From sequence record NC_019500.1: a stretch of DNA of 64,000 nucleotides; one strand, given 5' to 3'. The position numbers were made by a program, and so were the translations under genes. A model generated the notes under the pieces. That model ran no database searches and was not told where the DNA came from. It saw only the letters and a list, made by a program, of their open reading frames with translations. Below are positions 5,525 to 21,167 of this stretch, in pieces (position 1 is the stretch's first letter; each line of letters starts with the position of its first letter). The DNA comes from Escherichia phage Bp7.

Positions 5525-8236
5525 ATGCAAGAATTCTATTTGACAGTCGAACAAATCGGTGATAATATTCTCGAACGTTACATCGATAAAAATGGTAACG
5601 AACGTAGTCGTGAAGTTCCATACAAGCCTACAATGTTTATGCATGCTAATCCAGAGCAAGCCGTAAAATACATTGATATCTACGGTAAGGGTTGTGTTAA
5701 GAAAGAATTCGACTCTATGCGTGATGCATCCCAATGGATGAAACGTATGGACGATATGGGTCTCGAAGCCCTGGGTATGGACGACTATAAATTAGCCTAT
5801 TTGTCTGATACCTATCGTAAAGAAATCAGATATGATTCTTCTAAGATTCGTATTGCTAACTTCGACATCGAGGTAACATCTCCTGATGGATTCCCTGAAC
5901 CAGCTCAGGCTAAACATCCTATCGATGCCATTACCCACTACGACTCGATTGACGATAAATTCTATGTATTCGACCTTTTAGTTTCGCCTTATGGTACTGT
6001 TGAAGAGTGGTCGATTAAAATCGCTGAGAAACTCCAAGACGAAGGCGGTGACGAAGTTCCACAAGAAATCATTGACAAAATCGTTTATCTTCCGTTTAAT
6101 TCTGAAGAAGAAATGATGCTTGAGTACTTGAATTTCTGGCAACAGAAAACTCCTGTGATTTTGACTGGATGGAACGTTGAGTCGTTTGACGTACCATACG
6201 TTTATAACCGTCTGAAAAATCTGTTCGGTGAGAACACTGCTAAGCGATTAAGCCCACATCGTAAAACTCGTGTTAAAGTTATCGAGAACATGTACGGTGC
6301 TCGTGAAATCATTACATTGTTCGGTATCTCTGTTCTGGATTATATCGACCTGTATAAAAAATTCAGCTTTACCAACCAGCCTTCTTATTCTCTGGATTAT
6401 GTTTCTGAATATGAATTGAAAGTAGGTAAGTTGAAATATGATGGCCCAATCTCCAAGTTACGTGAGACGAACCACCAACGATATATTTCCTATAACATTA
6501 TCGACGTATATCGTGTAGTGCAGATTGATATGAAGCGTCAGTTCATTCTTCTGAGTTTGGACATGGGTTATTATGCCAAGATGCAGATTCAGTCGGTGTT
6601 CAGCCCAATTAAGACTTGGGACGCTATTATCTTTAATAGCCTTAAAGAACAAGGCAAGGTAATTCCACAAGCTCGCTCACACGTGGTCCAACCTTATCCT
6701 GGTGCTTTCGTTAAGGAACCGATTCCTAACGCTTACAAATATGTAATGAGTTTCGACCTTACATCTCTGTATCCGAGTATCATTCGACAAGTGAATATAA
6801 GCCCAGAGACCATCGCAGGGACATTCGCTAACGCACCGATACATGAATATATTGCCGGAACTGCTCAGCGTCCTAGCGACACCTACAGTTGCTCTCCTAA
6901 CGGCATGATGTACTATAAAGACCGTGAAGGTGTGATTCCGACAGAAATCACCAAGGTATTCTTGCAGCGTAAAGAACATAAAGGTTACATGCTTGCAGCT
7001 CAACGTAATGGTGAGTTAATTAAAGAAGCATTGGAAAATCCTAATCTCTCAGTTGATAGTCCACTGGATATCGATTATCGTTTTGACTTCTCTGACGAAA
7101 TCAAAGCCCAGATTAAAGCACTGTCAGCGCCTTCTTTAAGAGAAATGTTGAAGAAAGCCGAGCTCACTGAAGTTGCAGGTAACACTGCTCAGATTAACCG
7201 TAAGTTGCTTATCAACTCCCTTTACGGTGCACTTGGTAACGTATGGTTCCGTTACTATGACCTCAGGAACGCAACTGCAATCACACTGTTTGGTCAAATG
7301 GCCCTCCAATGGATTGAACGTAAGGTTAACGAATATCTGAATAGCGTGTGTAAGACTGAAAATCAGAAGTTCGTGCTCTATGGTGATACTGACTCCATTT
7401 ATGTTAAGGCAGATGCAATCATCAATAAAGTAGGCGAAGATAAATTCCGTGACACTAACCACTGGGTCGACTTCTTAGATAAATTTGCACGTGAACGTAT
7501 GGAACCAGCTATTGATGCAGGCTTCCGTGAGATGTGTGAGTACATGAACAACAAACAACACTTGATGTTCATGGACCGAGAAGCTATCGCTGGTCCTCCA
7601 CTTGGTTCTAAAGGCCTTGGTGGATTCTGGACAGGCAAGAAACGTTATGCACTTAACGTTTGGGACATGGAAGGTACTCGTTATGCCGAACCACACTTGA
7701 AAATCATGGGTCTCGAAACTCAGAAATCAAGTACACCTAAAGCAGTTCAGAAAGCTCTGAAGGAATGTATCCGTCGTATGCTTCAGGAAGGCGAGGCATC
7801 TTTGCAAGAATATTTCAAACAGTTTAATAAGGAATTTAACGAACTCGATTATGTAAGCATTGCAGCAGTATCCAGTGCTAACAACATCGAGAAATATAAT
7901 GAAGGTGGATTCCCTGGCTCTAAATGTCCGTACCACATCAAAGGTTGCTTAGCTTACATGCGTGCTTCTGCAGGTGATTTGACTATGCCTCGTATCGTTG
8001 ATGGTGAAAAGGTATATGTACTGCCGCTTAAAGAAGGCAACCCGTTCGGTGAAGCTTGTATGGCATGGCCGTCAGGTATTGAACTTCCGGTTCAGATTCG
8101 TGACCAAGTCCTCCGTTGGATGGACTACAACGTACTGTTCCAAAAGACCTTTATCAAGCCTCTGACTGGTTTTACTGAGTCCGCTAAAATCGACTACGAG
8201 AAAAAAGCAACATTATTTGACATGTTTGACTTTTAA
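5525..8236 (+). CDS. 43: gp43 DNA polymerase (family B) with 3'-5' exonuclease
   Basis: 903 aa; Exo motifs FDIE and YNIIDV, polymerase motifs DLTSLYPSI, KILINSLYG, YGDTDS; start chosen at MQEFYLTVEQ (5525), not the upstream ORF-track ATG. Confidence 0.95.
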   Translation: MQEFYLTVEQIGDNILERYIDKNGNERSREVPYKPTMFMHANPEQAVKYIDIYGKGCVKKEFDSMRDASQWMKRMDDMGLEALGMDDYKLAYLSDTYRKEIRYDSSKIRIANFDIEVTSPDGFPEPAQAKHPIDAITHYDSIDDKFYVFDLLVSPYGTVEEWSIKIAEKLQDEGGDEVPQEIIDKIVYLPFNSEEEMMLEYLNFWQQKTPVILTGWNVESFDVPYVYNRLKNLFGENTAKRLSPHRKTRVKVIENMYGAREIITLFGISVLDYIDLYKKFSFTNQPSYSLDYVSEYELKVGKLKYDGPISKLRETNHQRYISYNIIDVYRVVQIDMKRQFILLSLDMGYYAKMQIQSVFSPIKTWDAIIFNSLKEQGKVIPQARSHVVQPYPGAFVKEPIPNAYKYVMSFDLTSLYPSIIRQVNISPETIAGTFANAPIHEYIAGTAQRPSDTYSCSPNGMMYYKDREGVIPTEITKVFLQRKEHKGYMLAAQRNGELIKEALENPNLSVDSPLDIDYRFDFSDEIKAQIKALSAPSLREMLKKAELTEVAGNTAQINRKLLINSLYGALGNVWFRYYDLRNATAITLFGQMALQWIERKVNEYLNSVCKTENQKFVLYGDTDSIYVKADAIINKVGEDKFRDTNHWVDFLDKFARERMEPAIDAGFREMCEYMNNKQHLMFMDREAIAGPPLGSKGLGGFWTGKKRYALNVWDMEGTRYAEPHLKIMGLETQKSSTPKAVQKALKECIRRMLQEGEASLQEYFKQFNKEFNELDYVSIAAVSSANNIEKYNEGGFPGSKCPYHIKGCLAYMRASAGDLTMPRIVDGEKVYVLPLKEGNPFGEACMAWPSGIELPVQIRDQVLRWMDYNVLFQKTFIKPLTGFTESAKIDYEKKATLFDMFDF

Positions 8237-8238
8237 GT

Positions 8239-8268
8239 GTTTACATACCACAAGGAACGTGGTAGTAT
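8239..8268 (+). promoter_or_regulatory. early promoter cassette
   Basis: gtttac, 18 bp, tagtat, then cctatcaact and gaggaa RBS. Confidence 0.4.
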
Positions 8269-8298
8269 CCTTCCTATCAACTACATGAGGAAATTACA

Positions 8299-8535
8299 AT
8301 GGAAGCTTTAATCGTTAGTGCTGGTGTTTTAGGATTCGGTTCTCTGGTTATTATGTTCATCGGTTACTTTTTACCATGGATTCTGGCTCTTCTGCGAGGC
8401 ACTCGTAGTAATGTCGGAATTTTCTTCCTTAATCTCCTGTTAGGCTGGACGATGATTGGTTGGGTAGTGGCTTTAATCTGGGCCATCGTCGCTGAACGTA
8501 AATCAAACGCTCAAATCATTATTGTTAAACAATGA
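8299..8535 (+). CDS. imm: small two-helix membrane protein, Imm-like superinfection immunity candidate
   Basis: 78 aa, hydrophobic, GW...GW pattern; located between 43 and the 42-like gene as T4 imm is. Confidence 0.4.
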   Translation: MEALIVSAGVLGFGSLVIMFIGYFLPWILALLRGTRSNVGIFFLNLLLGWTMIGWVVALIWAIVAERKSNAQIIIVKQ

Positions 8536-8669
8536 AAATAATTATTTTATTTCTTATAATGGCCGCCTTTACCATTTACTGGGCAGTGGCAATTCCACCA
8601 ATGATTCCGACACTAATCATCGGATGGATTATTCTTATAGCACAAATTAAGTATAACTGTTTTAATTGA
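8532..8669 (+). CDS. small hydrophobic membrane peptide (45 aa)
   Basis: ATG overlaps the upstream stop (ATGA); MKIIILFLIMAAFTIYWAVAIPPMIPTLIIGWIILIAQ. Confidence 0.3.
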   Translation: MKIIILFLIMAAFTIYWAVAIPPMIPTLIIGWIILIAQIKYNCFN

Positions 8670-8676
8670 GGATATT

Positions 8677-9177
8677 ATGAAAAAGTTAATTATCGCAATG
8701 AGTATGCTCCTATCAGGTTGCGCAGTCCAGTACGGTGATGCAGTTTCGGCTGATGAAGTTGGTAAAGCTCGTATCGCAGCTGAACAGAAACAATTCGATG
8801 GCGAAATGAAATTCCGTGCAGGTTCAGGACTTGTGTATACCCGAGCTAATAATCAATGTGGTAATAACTGTGCAAAATATGCTCAACGAGAAATTGAATT
8901 CCAACGTGAACAAGAGTCTAAGCGTGAAGCGGTACTAGCCAAACGCCAGGCAGAAATGAAGCGCCAAGATGATTTGTATAAAAAGCAGAAACTGTATGCG
9001 ATGTGCGTAAACCATATCAATCTACAGATTTCTATCCATGAGGCTCGTTATTACGAAATGCTCGAAACCGAAAGCTTTGATAAGGCCCGTGATTATAAGA
9101 AACAAATCAATAAGCTCAAGACCAAAGTGCCGGCAGCAATAGAACAGTGCATCGAAATCGGTAAAGATAAGATTTAA
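8677..9177 (+). CDS. lipoprotein (signal peptide plus lipobox LSGC) with coiled-coil C-terminal part
   Basis: MKKLIIAMSMLLSGCAVQ. Confidence 0.45.
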   Translation: MKKLIIAMSMLLSGCAVQYGDAVSADEVGKARIAAEQKQFDGEMKFRAGSGLVYTRANNQCGNNCAKYAQREIEFQREQESKREAVLAKRQAEMKRQDDLYKKQKLYAMCVNHINLQISIHEARYYEMLETESFDKARDYKKQINKLKTKVPAAIEQCIEIGKDKI

Positions 9178-9180
9178 GCA

Positions 9181-9209
9181 GTATCAATTTATTAAAAATA
9201 GTGTATAAT
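9181..9209 (+). promoter_or_regulatory. sigma70-type promoter with extended -10
   Basis: gtatca, 17 bp, tgTATAAT, upstream of the nucleotidyltransferase-kinase gene. Confidence 0.35.
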
Positions 9210-9237
9210 GTACCTACATTCACTTGAGGAACAGATA

Positions 9238-10911
9238 ATGAAAAAGGTTGTTATTTTAGGCGCAGGTCTTGGCTCACGGTTGTATCCAATTACTAACGAA
9301 ATCCCGAAGGTATTGGTTAACTACAAACAACATACAGTACTAAAACATTTGTATGATTTGTATAGTAACCAATCAGATGAAATCATTTTGGTAATTCATA
9401 GCAAATTTAATGACCTTGTTAAGGGTTACATTAAATCCATTAACATGATTACCAGTGATAAGCCTAAATTCATTATTCGTAACGTAGATGTTGCCAATGG
9501 TTCAGCTCATGCTATCGATTGCATTGCTGAAGATATCATCGGGCACAACGTCCTGTTTAACTGGTGTGACATCATTCCTGAGGGTCATAAAGTTGAGTGG
9601 GATAACGACTACTGTTATACCTACGGGACTGACTGTCGTTTTACATTTGAAGAACCGTATTTGCGTGAAATTGGTACCGGCGGTGGTGTGGTTGGTTTGT
9701 ATCAGGTGGCTAATTGGACAGGTTTCGACCGTTCTAATTATGGTGAAGACCTTGCCGACAACCTGGATTCGATGGTCTATTTGACTGAACGTAAGCTGGA
9801 CTTTGTAGTTGATGTAGGTGACAAACTGAAACTGGCTAAGGCCCATGAAGATTCCGAAATTAACCGTGAATTTAATAAATTAGAGTTCACTGAGAATCTG
9901 GCTATTAAAGTACCAACTAACGAATTAGGTAAAGAAATCCAATCTAAAGAAATCAATTGGTACAATTCTATTGATTCTGAATTCGTTCCGAGCATTGTAG
10001 ACTTTGCTCCAGGTGAATTCATTAAAATGGAACGTATCTTTGGACGCACCATGGCAGATGCCTACCGGTTTATGTCTAAAGAAACTAAAGTCCTCATGGT
10101 TTATAAGGTCATTAGTGCATTACGTTCATTTGGTGGAACCATCGATAATCCATCTGATGAGCAATGGTATTCTGATGTTAAGAAAGAAGTATTGGACAAG
10201 GTCCTTATTCGTAATGCTTCTATTGCTGGATTGATTGAAGGCTTTGCTCCACAGGGCATTACCCATGTCAATGACTTTAAGGTAGGCGACCCGGAAAAAC
10301 TTCTTCGTCACGCCTTAGAAATTCTGTCTGAACATAAAGAACCGTACCAACTTATTCATGGCGACCCGCACTACAGTAATATTATGTTGTCGGACGAAGG
10401 TAATATTAAAATCATCGACCCACGTGGTTATTTTGGTAATAGTTCTAAAGGCCCTGCGATTTATGATGAAGCTAAGGTGCTTTATTCTATCGATGGCTAT
10501 GACAAATTTAACTCTGACCCTCTATGGGGTGGCTTAACTCGTAACGGAACTCGTGTATTCGTTGATATTGAAAAGGTTATGCCTTTAGATGATATTCCAA
10601 TGTGTACATTTAAGCACAAGCTCTGGATTGCTGTTATCTGGATGGCACTGGCAGGTTACTTTAAAAATAACCCTCTGAAAGCTCTGGGTGCTTATTACAA
10701 TGGGCTATATCAACTGAGTGTGCTGCTGAAGCGGCATCCTCGTAAGCGTAAGCTTATCACAGGTGAATTCGTCGATGAAGTTCGCGACCCTATCACGGCT
10801 CAAATTATCACTCGTTGTCCTGATAAGTGGGTTTTGCTTGACCAGGAAACTGGTGTAAAATATAAACCTACAGGTTCTACCGAACTCCACAAACAATGGA
10901 AGAAAATTTAA
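9238..10911 (+). CDS. bifunctional nucleotidyltransferase (N-terminal) / APH-like kinase (C-terminal) fusion
   Basis: N-terminal ILGAGLGSRL (G-x-G-x-R-L sugar-phosphate nucleotidyltransferase motif); C-terminal HGDPHYSNIMLSDEGNIKIIDPRG (Brenner-type kinase catalytic loop). Confidence 0.55.
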   Translation: MKKVVILGAGLGSRLYPITNEIPKVLVNYKQHTVLKHLYDLYSNQSDEIILVIHSKFNDLVKGYIKSINMITSDKPKFIIRNVDVANGSAHAIDCIAEDIIGHNVLFNWCDIIPEGHKVEWDNDYCYTYGTDCRFTFEEPYLREIGTGGGVVGLYQVANWTGFDRSNYGEDLADNLDSMVYLTERKLDFVVDVGDKLKLAKAHEDSEINREFNKLEFTENLAIKVPTNELGKEIQSKEINWYNSIDSEFVPSIVDFAPGEFIKMERIFGRTMADAYRFMSKETKVLMVYKVISALRSFGGTIDNPSDEQWYSDVKKEVLDKVLIRNASIAGLIEGFAPQGITHVNDFKVGDPEKLLRHALEILSEHKEPYQLIHGDPHYSNIMLSDEGNIKIIDPRGYFGNSSKGPAIYDEAKVLYSIDGYDKFNSDPLWGGLTRNGTRVFVDIEKVMPLDDIPMCTFKHKLWIAVIWMALAGYFKNNPLKALGAYYNGLYQLSVLLKRHPRKRKLITGEFVDEVRDPITAQIITRCPDKWVLLDQETGVKYKPTGSTELHKQWKKI

Positions 10912-11270
10912 TGCATCTGTGTTTTGATATCGATAATACCATTACTCACTGGCAAGATGACCGTGATTACGAAAACTTTAAACCGGACACCGAAATGGTG
11001 TCCATGATTAATAAGCTTTATGATGAAGGGTACGAGATTACCTTGTTCACTGCCCGTGGTATGACTTCATGCGGCCCAGGTCGAATCTTGGTTGAAGTAG
11101 TTCCTGCATTAGTTAAGAACCTTGAAAAGATTGGATTGAAATATCACAATCTGCTTACACATAAGCCGAGTTATACTTTTATCATCGATGACCGAGCAAT
11201 CCGTCCTGACCACTTTAAAGAAATGGTTCGTGAAGGAACTCTTGAAACCTATAAGGCATATCATCCGTGA
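10911..11270 (+). CDS. HAD-superfamily phosphatase (small)
   Basis: DxDxT motif in MHLCFDIDNTI, FTARG and IIDDR motifs; alternative start at 10896. Confidence 0.5.
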   Translation: MHLCFDIDNTITHWQDDRDYENFKPDTEMVSMINKLYDEGYEITLFTARGMTSCGPGRILVEVVPALVKNLEKIGLKYHNLLTHKPSYTFIIDDRAIRPDHFKEMVREGTLETYKAYHP

Positions 11271-11803
11271 AACCAAAAATCATTGTTATCGACGGCCCGG
11301 ATAATTCCGGGAAGTCTACTTTAATTGAATCACTTTTATCTGATAAGAAATATCGTCTTATTGATTTCCCTAAAAAGATTAATGGCAAATGCATTTCATT
11401 AGGGACTGATAATGACAAGGCTTTAGTCGAGACGTTGTATAAGTTTTTAGACCCTAATTTTGTCTACATCTTAGACCGTGGGTATCCTAGTAATATTGTT
11501 TACTCTGGATTCCTTCGTGGTGAAATGGACCCTTATGTAGAACTGGAAGATTGGAAAGGGTTTAAATCTGAATTCAATATTATTGAGGTTATTTTAACCC
11601 GTAATCCACTGGATAAAGACTTTGAAGATGACCTTATTAAATTAACCAAAGATGAGTTCAACCTAACTATCCGGCAATATGAAACATGTTTTGAAAACGT
11701 GTTTAAAATCTTAAATCACGACGGCCATAATAACTTGCTTAACGTCGATATGGTAGAATTAAAACGTCTGAATGAATATATTGAAAATAAGGTGAATAAA
11801 TGA
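11267..11803 (+). CDS. P-loop nucleoside/nucleotide kinase, thymidylate-kinase-like
   Basis: Walker A IVIDGPDNSGKST and a DRGY...S motif (TMPK DRY-like). Confidence 0.5.
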   Translation: MKPKIIVIDGPDNSGKSTLIESLLSDKKYRLIDFPKKINGKCISLGTDNDKALVETLYKFLDPNFVYILDRGYPSNIVYSGFLRGEMDPYVELEDWKGFKSEFNIIEVILTRNPLDKDFEDDLIKLTKDEFNLTIRQYETCFENVFKILNHDGHNNLLNVDMVELKRLNEYIENKVNK

Positions 11804-12498
11804 AACACATTACCGCTGTTAGTTTTGAAAACGCGTTTAAGCAAATGAACGAAGAAATCCTGGAAGCTCCACAGTTTGCAGTTGATTCTCGTATCGGCCG
11901 TTGTTATGAAATTGGTTCTGCTTCGGTAGAAGTACTGGATGCAAGCACCTATAAATTCACCGACCCTCGTATTAATCGTATCAACTATGATTATGCCGAA
12001 TCTTTCTGGAAGTTTATGATTTCTGGTGGTACTGACGCCACCGAAGCATTTAAGGAATACCCTAATGTTGCTAAGTTCATTGATAAGCCGAAAAGTGACG
12101 TATTGCCTGCAAACTTCAACACTTTCTATGGACCTAGAATTGTGGCCCAACTCCCAGCCCTACTTAAAGAGCTTAAAGAAAAGCCTAACTCGAGACGAGT
12201 TGTGTTCCAAATTCTCCAAGAACAAGACCAAGCCCTCCTTGATTCTGACGAATCCTTAGAATATCCATGTACCGATTCGGTGACATATTATATTCGTGAT
12301 GGACGTCTGTATGCACACACCCATATGCGTTCACAGAACTGTGCTATCGTTATGCAGCTGGATTTCTATCTGCAGGGTAAACTGATGGCCTTTATTGCTG
12401 AACAGTGTGGTGTTGGTCTGGGTACATATTCCCATACTATGGTTAGTGCACATGTATTTGAACGTGATTTTGACTACGTTCGAGGATTCCTGAAATGA
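11800..12498 (+). CDS. 42: pyrimidine hydroxymethylase, gene-42-like (thymidylate synthase fold)
   Basis: YPCTDSVTYYIRD and HMRSQNCAIVMQLDFYLQ resemble the T4 gp42 catalytic Cys region; lies between 43 and uvsX. Confidence 0.6.
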   Translation: MKHITAVSFENAFKQMNEEILEAPQFAVDSRIGRCYEIGSASVEVLDASTYKFTDPRINRINYDYAESFWKFMISGGTDATEAFKEYPNVAKFIDKPKSDVLPANFNTFYGPRIVAQLPALLKELKEKPNSRRVVFQILQEQDQALLDSDESLEYPCTDSVTYYIRDGRLYAHTHMRSQNCAIVMQLDFYLQGKLMAFIAEQCGVGLGTYSHTMVSAHVFERDFDYVRGFLK

Positions 12499-13388
12499 GT
12501 TTGTTTATCGTTCCTATTTTCAGTATGCGTAGTTACGAAACAGGTGAATATGCCGTCCTTAAGGACGGTAATTTTCAACTCCATTTAAACCGTGCTTGCC
12601 CAGGTGATTATCTGGCTTATCCTAGAAATTCGAGCGATATCAAAGAATGCATTGAATTATTTCCTGAACTGAATTTTGTACCTCTTTGGTATAAAGAAAA
12701 TGCTTATGAAACTCGTAAACATTTTTGGTCTGAAAATGAGTTCGTTGTTGATTCGTTAATCGAATACTATGACTGCTCAGGATTGGTAACCGATATCACA
12801 GGTTATGAGGGTACCCAGACTGTACAATTCAACTTTAACATTACAATGGACCCTGAAGTTCCTCGTTATTATATTGATGAGTTCATTGATATCGACGTGT
12901 CTTCAGTTGAACGTTCGATTTATACTACAGTCTTGAATCAATGTCAGAAAGACGTCCTGGTGACACGAGGTGCGTCCTCTGATAAGATTTTTGTAGACCA
13001 AAAGGTAATTAATCCGGCAGTAATTGAGCGTTACTCTGAAGGTCTAGCGCCTATTAAAATTGATGGTATTTTCCATCCATTCCGTATCTCTGATAAATGC
13101 TATCAATTCGAAAGAGTTGTAGACCAAGCTGCGGCTGAAGGTTCTCGCCTTTATATCACCGATCCGAATGATTCATTTAAACGTGAAGACTATCGTCCTG
13201 ATGTAGAGATTATTAAATTCAAACCGAGTAAGGTTGAATATTATCAGATTCTGAAATCAAGACCTCATATCATTTATCATGAGAATCCTGGTTTAGTATT
13301 CCATCCAGGTCTAGCCGAATTCATTTATTTCGGTGCCCATATCCATTCTGAGCACGAAATGCCAAGTTATGAGGACGTGGTCCTTTAA
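12495..13388 (+). CDS. hypothetical protein at the position of T4 beta-glucosyltransferase; candidate DNA sugar transferase
   Basis: 297 aa, start overlaps the 42-like stop (ATGA); no motif recognised, assignment is positional only. Confidence 0.3.
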   Translation: MSLFIVPIFSMRSYETGEYAVLKDGNFQLHLNRACPGDYLAYPRNSSDIKECIELFPELNFVPLWYKENAYETRKHFWSENEFVVDSLIEYYDCSGLVTDITGYEGTQTVQFNFNITMDPEVPRYYIDEFIDIDVSSVERSIYTTVLNQCQKDVLVTRGASSDKIFVDQKVINPAVIERYSEGLAPIKIDGIFHPFRISDKCYQFERVVDQAAAEGSRLYITDPNDSFKREDYRPDVEIIKFKPSKVEYYQILKSRPHIIYHENPGLVFHPGLAEFIYFGAHIHSEHEMPSYEDVVL

Positions 13389-13413
13389 CGCTGTAAATGT
13401 GAAGTGATATAAT
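13384..13413 (+). promoter_or_regulatory. promoter upstream of uvsX
   Basis: tttaac, 18 bp, tgaTATAAT, then ccctatc. Confidence 0.3.
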
Positions 13414-13465
13414 TACCCTATCTTAAAACGTGAGTAAAATATAATGATGCCTATGGAAAAATATA

Positions 13466-14647
13466 ATGTCTGATTTAAAATCCCGTTTGATTAAAGCTTC
13501 TACTTCTAAAATGACCGCCGACCTGACCAAATCTAAATTGTTTAATGGTCGTGACGAAGTTCCTACTCGTATCCCTATGCTGAATATTGCATTGGGCGGT
13601 GCGTTGAATGCAGGCTTACAATCAGGTTTGACAATCTTTGCTGCTCCATCTAAACACTTTAAAACGTTGTTTGGACTTACCATGGTTGCGGCATATATGA
13701 AGAAATATCCAGACGCAATTTGTTTGTTCTATGACTCTGAGTTTGGTGCTTCAGAATCTTATTTCCGTTCGATGGGTGTTGATTTGGAACGTGTGGTTCA
13801 TACACCAATCCAGTCAGTCGAACAGCTTAAAGTTGATATGACCAACCAGTTAGAAGAAATTACTCGTGGCGAAAAGGTTATTATCTTTATCGACTCCATT
13901 GGTAACACTGCTTCTAAGAAAGAAACCGAAGATGCTTTGAACGAGAAAGTTGTAGGTGATATGACTCGTGCTAAATCACTGAAATCTCTGTTCCGTATCG
14001 TAACACCTTATCTGACCATCAAAGATATCCCTTGTGTAGCAATTAACCACACGGCTATGGAAATTGGTGGAATGTACCCTAAAGAGATTATGGGTGGTGG
14101 TACTGGTATTCTGTACTCTGCTTCTACCGTGTTCTTTATCTCTAAACGTCAGGTTAAAGATGGTACTGAGCTCACTGGTTATGACTTCACACTGAAGGCC
14201 GAGAAATCTCGTACGGTTAAAGAGAAATCAACGTTCCCGATTACAGTGAACTTCGAAGGTGGTATCGACCCATTCAGTGGATTGCTTGAAATGGCTACTG
14301 ATATTGGCTTTGTCGTGAAACCTAAAGCTGGCTGGTATAATCGTGCATTCCTTGACGAAACCACAGGCGAAATGGTTCAAGAAGAAAAAGCATGGCGTGC
14401 TAAAGCTACCGATTGTGTTGAGTTCTGGGGACCGCTGTTTAAACATGCTCCGTTCCGTGAAGCAATCGAGAATAAGTATAAGCTTGGTGCAATTAATTCT
14501 ATTAAAGAAGTTGACGATGCGGTAAATGACCTTATTAACTCTCGTGTCTCTAAGAACGTTGCTGTTAAATTAAGCGGAAATACCCAAAGCGCCGCTGATA
14601 TCGAAAACGATTTAGAAAATATGAATTTTGTGAGCGACCATGACTGA
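13466..14647 (+). CDS. uvsX: UvsX recombinase (RecA-like)
   Basis: MSDLKSRLIKASTSKMTADLTKSKLFNGRDEVPTRIPMLNIALGG is near-identical to T4 UvsX. Confidence 0.95.
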   Translation: MSDLKSRLIKASTSKMTADLTKSKLFNGRDEVPTRIPMLNIALGGALNAGLQSGLTIFAAPSKHFKTLFGLTMVAAYMKKYPDAICLFYDSEFGASESYFRSMGVDLERVVHTPIQSVEQLKVDMTNQLEEITRGEKVIIFIDSIGNTASKKETEDALNEKVVGDMTRAKSLKSLFRIVTPYLTIKDIPCVAINHTAMEIGGMYPKEIMGGGTGILYSASTVFFISKRQVKDGTELTGYDFTLKAEKSRTVKEKSTFPITVNFEGGIDPFSGLLEMATDIGFVVKPKAGWYNRAFLDETTGEMVQEEKAWRAKATDCVEFWGPLFKHAPFREAIENKYKLGAINSIKEVDDAVNDLINSRVSKNVAVKLSGNTQSAADIENDLENMNFVSDHD

Positions 14648-20651: not shown

Positions 20652-21167
20652 ATGGCTCATTTTAACGAATGTAGTGGTTTGATTGCAGGTGTTGATAAAG
20701 CTGAGGAAGCTTATGTTAGTGCAATTACCAAAGGTATCGACCCACTGCAGGTTATGCTTGATATGCAGAAATCTTTACAGGTTCGTCTGGCTAATGACCG
20801 TGATTATTGTTACCACCCGGATAAACTGGCTACTGCAGGTGATGTTGTTGGATGGATGCGCGAACAGAAAGACTGCATCGATGATGAATTCCGTGAACTT
20901 CTGACTTCACTTGGTGAAATGTCTAAAGGTGAGAAAGATGCTTCTGCCGTCTGGAAAAAATGGAAGGCACGTTACCCAGAAGCTCAGTCTAAACGTATTG
21001 ATGAAATGAGCCCTGAAGACCAGTTGGAAATTAAATTTGAACTTGTGGACATAATCCATTTCGTATTAAACATGGTTACAGGTCTTGGTATGACTTCTGA
21101 AGAATTGTTCAAACTTTATTATCTGAAAAATCTTGAAAATTTCAAACGTCAGGACAATGGGTATTAA
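20652..21167 (+). CDS. 56: gp56 dCTPase (dCTP/dCDP pyrophosphatase)
   Basis: 171 aa; MAHFNECSG...VMLDMQKSLQVRLAND...CIDDEFRELLTSLGEMS resembles T4 gp56. Confidence 0.6.
   Translation: MAHFNECSGLIAGVDKAEEAYVSAITKGIDPLQVMLDMQKSLQVRLANDRDYCYHPDKLATAGDVVGWMREQKDCIDDEFRELLTSLGEMSKGEKDASAVWKKWKARYPEAQSKRIDEMSPEDQLEIKFELVDIIHFVLNMVTGLGMTSEELFKLYYLKNLENFKRQDNGY

Follow-up and report, generated by a model that had tools for sequence, protein, structure and literature searches.

Gene content of the interval between gene 43 and uvsX

The DNA analyzed here is a 64,000-nucleotide stretch of the T4-like (Dhakavirus) Escherichia phage Bp7 (NC_019500.1), referred to below as the window, and the subject is its interval 8299-13388, flanked by genes 44, 62, regA and 43 upstream and by uvsX, 40 and 41 downstream. 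Beyond imm, a small membrane protein gene and a lipoprotein gene, five genes at about 9178-13390 encode a nucleotidyltransferase-kinase fusion (NTase-kinase, NTK), a HAD phosphatase, a P-loop kinase of the thymidylate kinase (TMPK) fold, a homolog of the thymidylate synthase ThyA and a glycosyltransferase (GT) of the GT-B fold (Table 1). These five genes very probably constitute the Dhakavirus version of the pathway for DNA hypermodification with arabinosyl-5-hydroxycytosine (ara-5hoC) known from RB69, DLP3, HY126, Bas46/47 and Serratia phages. In a nucleotide comparison the interval matched 50 phage records over its full length at 93-97% identity, and every one of the matching records inspected was a Dhakavirus (QL01, WG01, MX01, IME08, JS98, JS10, IME540 and others). 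Each protein of the interval has hundreds of homologs, with similarities far past chance.

All open reading frames (ORFs) claimed in a preliminary description of this DNA, made from its letters, were recovered on the plus strand where it had placed them, with one 45-residue ORF that it had missed. The chain of overlapping stop and start codons that it pointed out was also seen: four consecutive overlapping junctions join the five genes, which form one translationally coupled block. The HAD gene starts either at ATG 10896, inside the NTK gene (16-nt overlap), or within TAATG at 10909-10913; the HAD and kinase genes overlap in GTGA, the kinase and ThyA homolog genes in ATGA, and the ThyA homolog and GT genes again in ATGA. 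For the NTK, the mechanical ORF begins at 9208, but the ATG at 9238, which lies 9 nt downstream of a GAGG ribosome-binding site, is the start annotated in QL01 and gives 557 residues. The further suggestion of a single operon held in the translational sense; a scan of 8100-13600 for sigma-70 promoters and terminators gave 21 sites against 17.3 expected from shuffled sequence, which is not above chance, and we claim no transcription unit beyond the overlapping codons. The leader of the block (9178-9237) is a possible promoter and is offered as a weak lead. An Rfam scan of 8000-13700 returned no matches.

Table 1 Features of the interval and of the dCTPase gene discussed with it (window coordinates).
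Feature	Position	Strand	Evidence and relationships
imm	8299-8535	+	Pfam Imm_superinfect, E 5e-18
Hydrophobic membrane ORF, 45 aa	8532-8669	+	phrog_3610 (no function attached), E 7e-22; conserved; between imm and the lipoprotein gene
Lipoprotein, 166 aa	8677-9177	+	Lipobox LLSGC; phrog_1754 (no function attached)
Cassette leader, intergenic	9178-9237	+	TATAAT hexamer at 9203-9208; GAGG ribosome-binding site; possible promoter
NTK, 557 aa	9238-10911	+	Pfam NTP_transferase and APH; ortholog of HY126 AfhE and RB69 gp52:53
HAD phosphatase	10896-11270	+	Ortholog of HY126 AfhF and RB69 gp51
TMPK-fold P-loop nucleotide kinase	11267-11803	+	Ortholog of RB69 gp45 and DLP3 gp78
Predicted 5-hydroxy-dCMP synthase, ThyA superfamily	11800-12498	+	Ortholog of RB69 gp48, DLP3 gp80 and the HY126 enzyme (PDB 9iqu); T4 gene 42 position
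GT-B glycosyltransferase, 297 aa	12495-13388	+	Ortholog of RB69 gp46:47 and DLP3 gp79; T4 beta-gt position
uvsX	starts 13466	+	ORF list
gp56-type dCTPase homolog	20652-21167	+	tblastn with QL01 gp56 (annotated dCTPase), 74% identity, E 1e-82; outside the reported interval

The enzyme at the gene 42 position and the modified base

The product of the fourth gene of the block had been taken for a divergent gene-42-like hydroxymethylase, and the modified base accordingly for hydroxymethylcytosine (hmC). Its ThyA fold was confirmed (Pfam Thymidylat_synt, E 4.8e-14), but the enzymatic assignment was not borne out: identity is 79% to the enzyme of HY126 (PDB 9iqu/9iqc/9ir2, E 1.5e-125) as against 25% to the T4 dCMP hydroxymethylase gp42 (E 5e-6). 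In the alignment (E. coli ThyA numbering) C146 is invariant, and three positions are exchanged: L143E in 'LEYPC', N177D in 'QLDF' and D169N in 'RSQN', the last against Asp in T4 gp42 ('RSND'). The D169N exchange is the signature of flavin-dependent 5-hydroxy-dCMP synthases, and nine of nine further enzymes predicted from the signature made 5-hydroxy-dC (5hodC) (PMC13326640).

The reference systems have themselves been reinterpreted. The modification of RB69 was first reported as arabinosyl-hmC (ara-hmC; PMC6024577) and has since been revised, on the basis of nuclear magnetic resonance and mass spectrometry (NMR/MS) together with 18O2 labelling, to an arabinose joined at C5 through the oxygen of 5-hydroxycytosine (5hoC) and not of hydroxymethylcytosine (PMC13326640). 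The maker of 5-hydroxy-dCMP (5hodCMP) is a flavin-binding, O2-using ThyA homolog, RB69 gp48 or DLP3 gp80 (PMC13326640), and an independent 2026 paper reports ara-5hoC in Mosigvirus NP too. Because of the contrast between 79% and 25% identity and the D169N exchange, we read the gene at the gene 42 slot as encoding a putative 5-hydroxy-dCMP synthase rather than a hydroxymethylase, and the modified base is most likely 5hoC, not hmC.

We also considered, and rejected, the idea that the genome encodes a canonical hmC pathway at another site. Here and for the absences reported below, the space searched by tblastn was the 64-kb window and the complete genome of QL01 (97% identical). Besides the cassette gene it held no gp42-like sequence, and neither T4 alpha-gt nor beta-gt gave a significant match; the QL01 interval between genes 47 and 55 has only an a-gt.2 homolog. 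Thus neither feature of the T4-type glucosyl-hmC system, a gp42-type hydroxymethylase or an alpha- or beta-gt, was encountered in the window or in QL01. T4 resembles the window in placing a ThyA-family enzyme and then a GT in the same slot between 43 and uvsX, and in modifying dCMP before adding sugar from a UDP-sugar. It differs in using folate-dependent hydroxymethylation instead of hydroxylation with flavin and O2 (PMC13326640), and in drawing on host UDP-glucose, for which no sugar-activation genes are needed. The T4 interval, said in the preliminary description to hold only imm, 42 and beta-gt, also contains imm.1 and segA.

Predicted sugar activation and transfer

The remaining domain calls of the preliminary description (NTase, APH-like kinase, HAD and TMPK fold) were likewise upheld. 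In the NTK, the Pfam matches NTP_transferase (32.6 bits) and APH (26.1 bits) both exceed their gathering cut-offs, the NTase domain occupying the N-terminal ~200 residues and the APH-like kinase domain the C-terminal part. Identity to the HY126 protein is 42.5% over the full length (E 3e-143). Both catalytic domains are intact: the G-x-G-x-R loop (G10/R14), K24, the Brenner-type motif H374-G-D376...N381 and IDPRG (D394) are invariant across 36 homologs. In a rough neighbor-joining (NJ) tree without bootstrap support, the branch that carries the protein is long and arises among the NTKs of phages in which ara-5hoC has been measured (92A1, HY126, DLP-type).

The HAD gene lies directly downstream of the NTK gene and overlaps it. 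Its product carries the DxDxT motif as 'DIDNT', matches PDB 9iqw from HY126 (E 2.8e-53) and 1xpj (E 2.8e-12) as well as the capsule-biosynthesis phosphatase family TIGR01689 (E 1.6e-14), is 62% identical to the HY126 phosphatase, and is predicted from these relationships to convert arabinose-1,5-bisphosphate to arabinose-1-phosphate. The kinase, with its P-loop GPDNSGKS, a DRGY motif and a match to phrog_761 (E 2.4e-39), has the TMPK fold reported for RB69 gp45, and a TMPK-like kinase is present in every cluster variant compared; identity is 36% to the HY126 protein and 84% to that of Klebsiella phage Marfa. The 297-residue protein, encoded directly downstream of the ThyA homolog, gave no useful match in sequence searches of Pfam, NCBIfam and PDB, and a fold search alone identified it as GT-B (AlphaFold2 model with pLDDT 95.2 and pTM 0.90). 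It is 67% identical to its HY126 counterpart over the full length and has homologs in 349 phage records. The transferase role proposed earlier for this protein at the beta-gt position is supported, and it is predicted to be the first, base-proximal arabinosyltransferase.

In RB69 the corresponding assignments are gp52:53 for the NTase-kinase (AfhE), gp51 for the HAD phosphatase (AfhF), gp45 for the nucleotide kinase, gp46:47 for the first GT, gp55 for the D-arabinose-5-phosphate (A5P) isomerase and gp3 for the second GT (PMC13326640). The biochemistry of HY126 AfhE and AfhF, as relayed in PMC13326640, runs from A5P to arabinose-1,5-bisphosphate (kinase), on to arabinose-1-phosphate (HAD) and finally to UDP-arabinofuranose (NTase). 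A pathway of nucleotide-sugar activation and glycosyl transfer for cytosine hypermodification, as first surmised for this locus, is supported. All five proteins have full-length orthologs in HY126/RB69/DLP3, and the RB69-type arabinose, then a guess, is by that orthology the best-supported sugar. The order first drawn, with the HAD enzyme releasing a free sugar for the kinase and then the NTase, corresponds to an older proposal and departs from the relayed one, in which the kinase precedes HAD and NTase and no free sugar appears as an intermediate.

Metagenomic fusion proteins (P0192, P0214; 922-946 aa) combine an NTase (PF00483), a HAD (PF13419/PF00702) and a SIS/A5P-isomerase domain (PF01380), and one source's copy is named GutQ/phosphatase; fusions of this composition tie the NTK family to arabinose-5-phosphate.

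Public labels for these genes are wrong or empty: the ThyA homolog is called 'thymidylate synthase' in QL01 or 'dCMP hydroxymethylase' in other records, the HAD protein 'phosphoheptose isomerase' (QL01, a misnomer), the kinase 'thymidylate kinase', and the GT and NTK 'hypothetical protein'.

Genes missing from the Dhakavirus version

The cluster of the Mosigvirus phages HY126, RB69, Bas46 and Bas47 (RB69 gp45-gp55; HY126 AfhE/AfhF and the Aat transferases) occupies the same slot between gene 43 and uvsX, shares the D169N signature, has a gp56 dCTPase nearby, and supplies full-length orthologs of all five window proteins (Table 2). The window differs in having no A5P isomerase (API), no U32-like protein (RB69 gp50) and no second GT between rIIA.1 and gene 39 (RB69 gp3; HY126 9iqz). 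In addition, its kinase gene follows the HAD gene, whereas that of Mosigvirus follows the GT gene; imm and the lipoprotein gene stand in the slot of the Mosigvirus isomerase; and its NTK and kinase belong to a divergent module. Acinetobacter phage DLP2, a Lazarusvirus with the same gene set as the characterized DLP3 (tri-arabinosyl-5hoC), also has all five orthologs, together with extras that the window lacks, namely an isomerase (DLP3 gp83) and two GTs (gp76/gp77) for the second and third arabinose.

Klebsiella phage Marfa (Marfavirus), for which no experiments were found, has the same module in the same NTK-HAD-kinase order and, as in the window, no A5P isomerase in the 43-uvsX interval. Unlike the window, Marfa has a U32-like gene between the kinase and ThyA homolog genes and a lipoprotein-like ORF after the GT, and its core is more distant (polymerase 68.5%). 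The U32-like protein of Marfa (6084-7244) is 89% identical to that of HY126 (6845-8005), compared with only 70% for the polymerases, which points to recent lateral exchange.

The absences were assessed with HY126 isomerase and U32-like protein, RB69 gp3, the two extra DLP2 GTs, and T4 alpha-gt and beta-gt as queries. The isomerase gave no match with E below 0.1 in either the window or QL01, and the U32-like gene none in either. Isomerase homologs occur in 276 phage records; 60 evenly spaced rows of these included no Dhakavirus, no Klebsiella phage of the Marfa type and no Proteus phage. Counted by genus, the isomerase records are fewer than those of the GT by roughly as many as these phages account for, and Klebsiella is missing from the isomerase counts. 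For the second and third GTs, neither RB69 gp3 nor the extra DLP2 GTs found a match in the window or QL01, a GT paralog was not found there either, and between rIIA.1 and gene 39 QL01 has two small ORFs only. From the single GT, and specifically from the lack of one of the RB69 gp3 type, mono- rather than di-arabinosylation is predicted. As no phage isomerase is encoded, A5P would come from the host enzymes KdsD/GutQ, whose supply of A5P is established E. coli metabolism.

A divergent NTK-HAD-kinase module

NTK identities to the window protein over the phage collection are sharply bimodal, being either at least 71% or at most 46%. Fifty records reach at least 95%, 23 fall at 80-90% (Klebsiella), six at 60-80% (Proteus), and the rest lie at or below 46%, a group that includes close core-genome relatives. 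The high-identity group, here called type B as opposed to type A for the remainder, comprises only three 90%-identity clusters among 5.8 billion proteins. Dhakavirus and the Marfa-type Klebsiella phages have the type-B module in common, and the Proteus phages share at least the NTK.

Table 2 Pairwise protein identities (%) for the DNA polymerase and the five cassette proteins.
Protein	Window-HY126	Window-Marfa	Window-DLP2	HY126-DLP2
DNA polymerase	83	68.5		
NTK	42.5	80	44	56
HAD phosphatase	62	84	58	62.5
TMPK-fold kinase	36	84	39	46
ThyA homolog	79	85	71	68
GT	67	69	50	46

Discordant identities of this kind argue that the contiguous genes for NTK, HAD and kinase form a module of their own, which has been exchanged laterally and accompanies the absence of the isomerase. 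The fuller proposition, that type B is a distinct isomerase-less module whose faster divergence could mean an altered sugar or nucleotide specificity, or a strict dependence on KdsD/GutQ, is on present evidence improbable.

Proposed pathway and its alternatives

The pathway joins the orthology, folds, motifs, D169N signature and absences (API, extra GTs, alpha-gt, beta-gt and gp42) observed here with chemistry carried over from the literature on orthologs, which is the source for every chemical step, for arabinose as the sugar, for UDP as its carrier and for the host as supplier of A5P. The gp56-type dCTPase would convert dCTP to dCMP, at once lowering dCTP and supplying dCMP, which the ThyA-family enzyme would hydroxylate at C5 with O2 and flavin to 5-hydroxy-dCMP. 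A gp1-type kinase, which phosphorylates 5hodCMP (PMC13326640), would be encoded elsewhere in the genome and, possibly aided by the TMPK-fold kinase, would lead to 5hodCTP, to be inserted by the phage polymerase in place of dC. In parallel, the C-terminal kinase domain of the NTK would add a phosphate at C1 of host-derived A5P to give arabinose-1,5-bisphosphate, the HAD phosphatase would strip the 5-phosphate to leave arabinose-1-phosphate, and the N-terminal NTase domain would form UDP-arabinofuranose. The GT-B enzyme would then join arabinose to the 5-OH of 5hoC in an ether-type glycosidic link, and, with no second or third transferase encoded, the expected product is mono-arabinosyl-5hoC. 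The dCTPase of the window is only 74% identical to that of QL01, against ~97% nucleotide identity for the cassette, an indication that this gene, which supports the pathway, is mosaic or has been replaced by another allele.

Several points weigh against this assignment. A search of the literature returned no nucleoside analysis of a Dhakavirus, and for that reason the product is one that we infer; the results of He et al. and Mahler et al. enter at second hand, as relayed in PMC13326640 and other citing papers. The TMPK-like kinase is without a known role even in the model phages. The NTK and the kinase have diverged to an unusual degree, their identity to all type-A homologs lying at 36-46%, whereas HY126 and DLP2 are closer to each other (Table 2) despite hosts of different orders, and such divergence makes a change of substrate possible. 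Finally, three components of the characterized systems are missing from the cassette (A5P isomerase, U32-like protein and second GT), although Dhakaviruses and Marfaviruses are still counted as cluster carriers (PMC13326640).

One alternative keeps the enzymes and changes their timing: arabinose would be added to 5-hydroxy-dCMP before replication, and the TMPK-fold kinase would handle the bulky arabinosyl-5hodCMP, beyond the reach of a general dNMP kinase. The experiments on RB69 and DLP3 do not separate the mononucleotide from DNA as first acceptor, and single GTs were inactive on 5hoC-containing DNA, by data not shown there (PMC13326640). This leaves a possible role for the TMPK-fold kinase, which is conserved in every variant even though a gp1-type kinase already phosphorylates 5hodCMP, and which in type-A clusters is encoded in the order ThyA homolog-GT-kinase. 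The window kinase, however, adjoins the sugar genes and not the GT, and early addition would oblige the polymerase to accept a glycosylated dNTP. It would also break with the T-even paradigm, in which glycosylation is post-replicative and takes place on DNA. With the later arabinoses added on DNA in vitro as well (PMC13326640), we regard early addition as unlikely, if worth keeping in view.

A second alternative accepts the 5hoC base and lets the type-B module activate another host pentose phosphate, or use another nucleotide carrier, to yield an undescribed glycosyl-5hoC. It draws on the bimodal NTK identities, on the 80-84% identity of the NTK, HAD and kinase to those of Marfa when the polymerase is nearer HY126, on the confinement of type B to three clusters, and on the isomerase, which is absent from the whole QL01 genome and whose holders, judged by genus counts and the 60 rows sampled, show no sign of Dhakavirus, Marfa-type Klebsiella or Proteus phages. 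Yet A5P is made for Kdo synthesis in every Gram-negative host, so that a phage can do without an isomerase of its own. If the sugar or the carrier had changed, the GT should moreover be the first to show it, but it does not follow the split (67-69% to both Marfa and HY126), and the HAD enzyme follows it only in part (62% to HY126, 84% to Marfa). The catalytic motifs are intact, and in the NJ tree, for which there is no bootstrap, the clade nests on its long branch among confirmed arabinosylators. Given a GT without the type-B split and intact catalytic columns, we consider a change of sugar quite unlikely.

The third alternative, a gene-42-type dCMP hydroxymethylase with a non-glucose sugar on hmC (ara-hmC) and the HAD enzyme acting first to free the sugar, is very improbable and can be set aside: it has on its side the exact gene 42 position, the ThyA superfamily common to both enzymes, the first report on RB69 (PMC6024577) and, for the HAD step, the label 'dephosphorylates Araf5P to Ara' in Table 1 of PMC13326640, and against it the nearness to a HY126 enzyme described as a flavin-bound hydroxylase (PMC13326640), D169N in the window protein, the NMR/MS and 18O2 revision of RB69, and a HY126 biochemistry that, as relayed, puts the kinase ahead of the phosphatase.

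Cassette borders and neighboring genes

The limits of the ara-5hoC cassette can be set by comparison with Gaprivervirus VR20 (locus 6110-7232), in which the order is 43-imm-lipoprotein-(small ORF)-uvsX, with a lipoprotein homolog 50% identical to that of the window and none of the five genes. This arrangement, together with a uvsX leader conserved between VR20 and the window up to ~13395, places the limits at ~9178-13390. Because VR20 has imm and the lipoprotein gene without the cassette, we regard imm, the 45-residue ORF and the lipoprotein gene as independent neighbors. The lipoprotein, which had been counted into the pathway, was rejected as a member on the same ground, and it is found in 112 records as compared with 349 for the GT. 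With neither a ThyA homolog nor sugar genes, VR20 represents a natural 'empty site' for the cassette, in agreement with PMC12115623, where Gaprivervirus is tabulated as having no hmC gene. The uvsX leader (13395-13465), with GTGATATAAT and a second TATAAT, is kept in VR20 despite the different gene content upstream.

The 45-residue ORF starts within the ATGA that contains the stop codon of imm and is unannotated in the QL01 RefSeq record, which shows a gap between imm and the lipoprotein gene. The lipoproteins of the window, of Marfa (locus 8982-9422) and of T4 imm.1 (locus 5637-6014) have similar N-termini, with MK..., a lipobox, GC(A/V)xQ and ...(D/E)VGK. BLAST similarity among the three is not significant, and homology of the window lipoprotein to T4 imm.1 was dropped as unproven (E 8.4 despite similar lipobox N-termini). 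Possibly they belong to a fast-evolving periplasmic or outer-membrane family located beside imm.

Implications for Dhakaviruses

The work that resolved the pathway in related phages dates from 2025-2026, and a system of this kind has been published (Thomas 2018, Mahler 2025, He et al., Lee et al. 2026), so that the finding as such is already known: Dhakaviruses are named among the cluster-carrying genera (Lee et al. 2026, PMC13326640), and IME08 gp43 was given as a full-length NTK homolog by Thomas 2018. Some recent comparative papers nevertheless still score Dhakavirus as 'hmC+'. The new points are modest, namely the predicted mono-arabinosyl product, the probable reliance on host A5P and a divergent module that appears to have moved between phage genera.

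The cassette explains how Dhakaviruses (the JS98/IME08/QL01 group, with candidate phages for therapy among its members) can be without gp42, alpha-gt and beta-gt and yet encode dCTPase, denA, denB and alc. If the specificity of the type-B module had changed, ~80 sequenced phages would bear an undescribed glycosyl-5-hydroxycytosine. Most likely, however, the cytosines of Dhakavirus DNA are 5-hydroxycytosines bearing arabinose, a modification with which phages reportedly escape type II restriction, Brig1 and type I CRISPR-Cas while becoming exposed to enzymes of the GmrSD/BrxU type.

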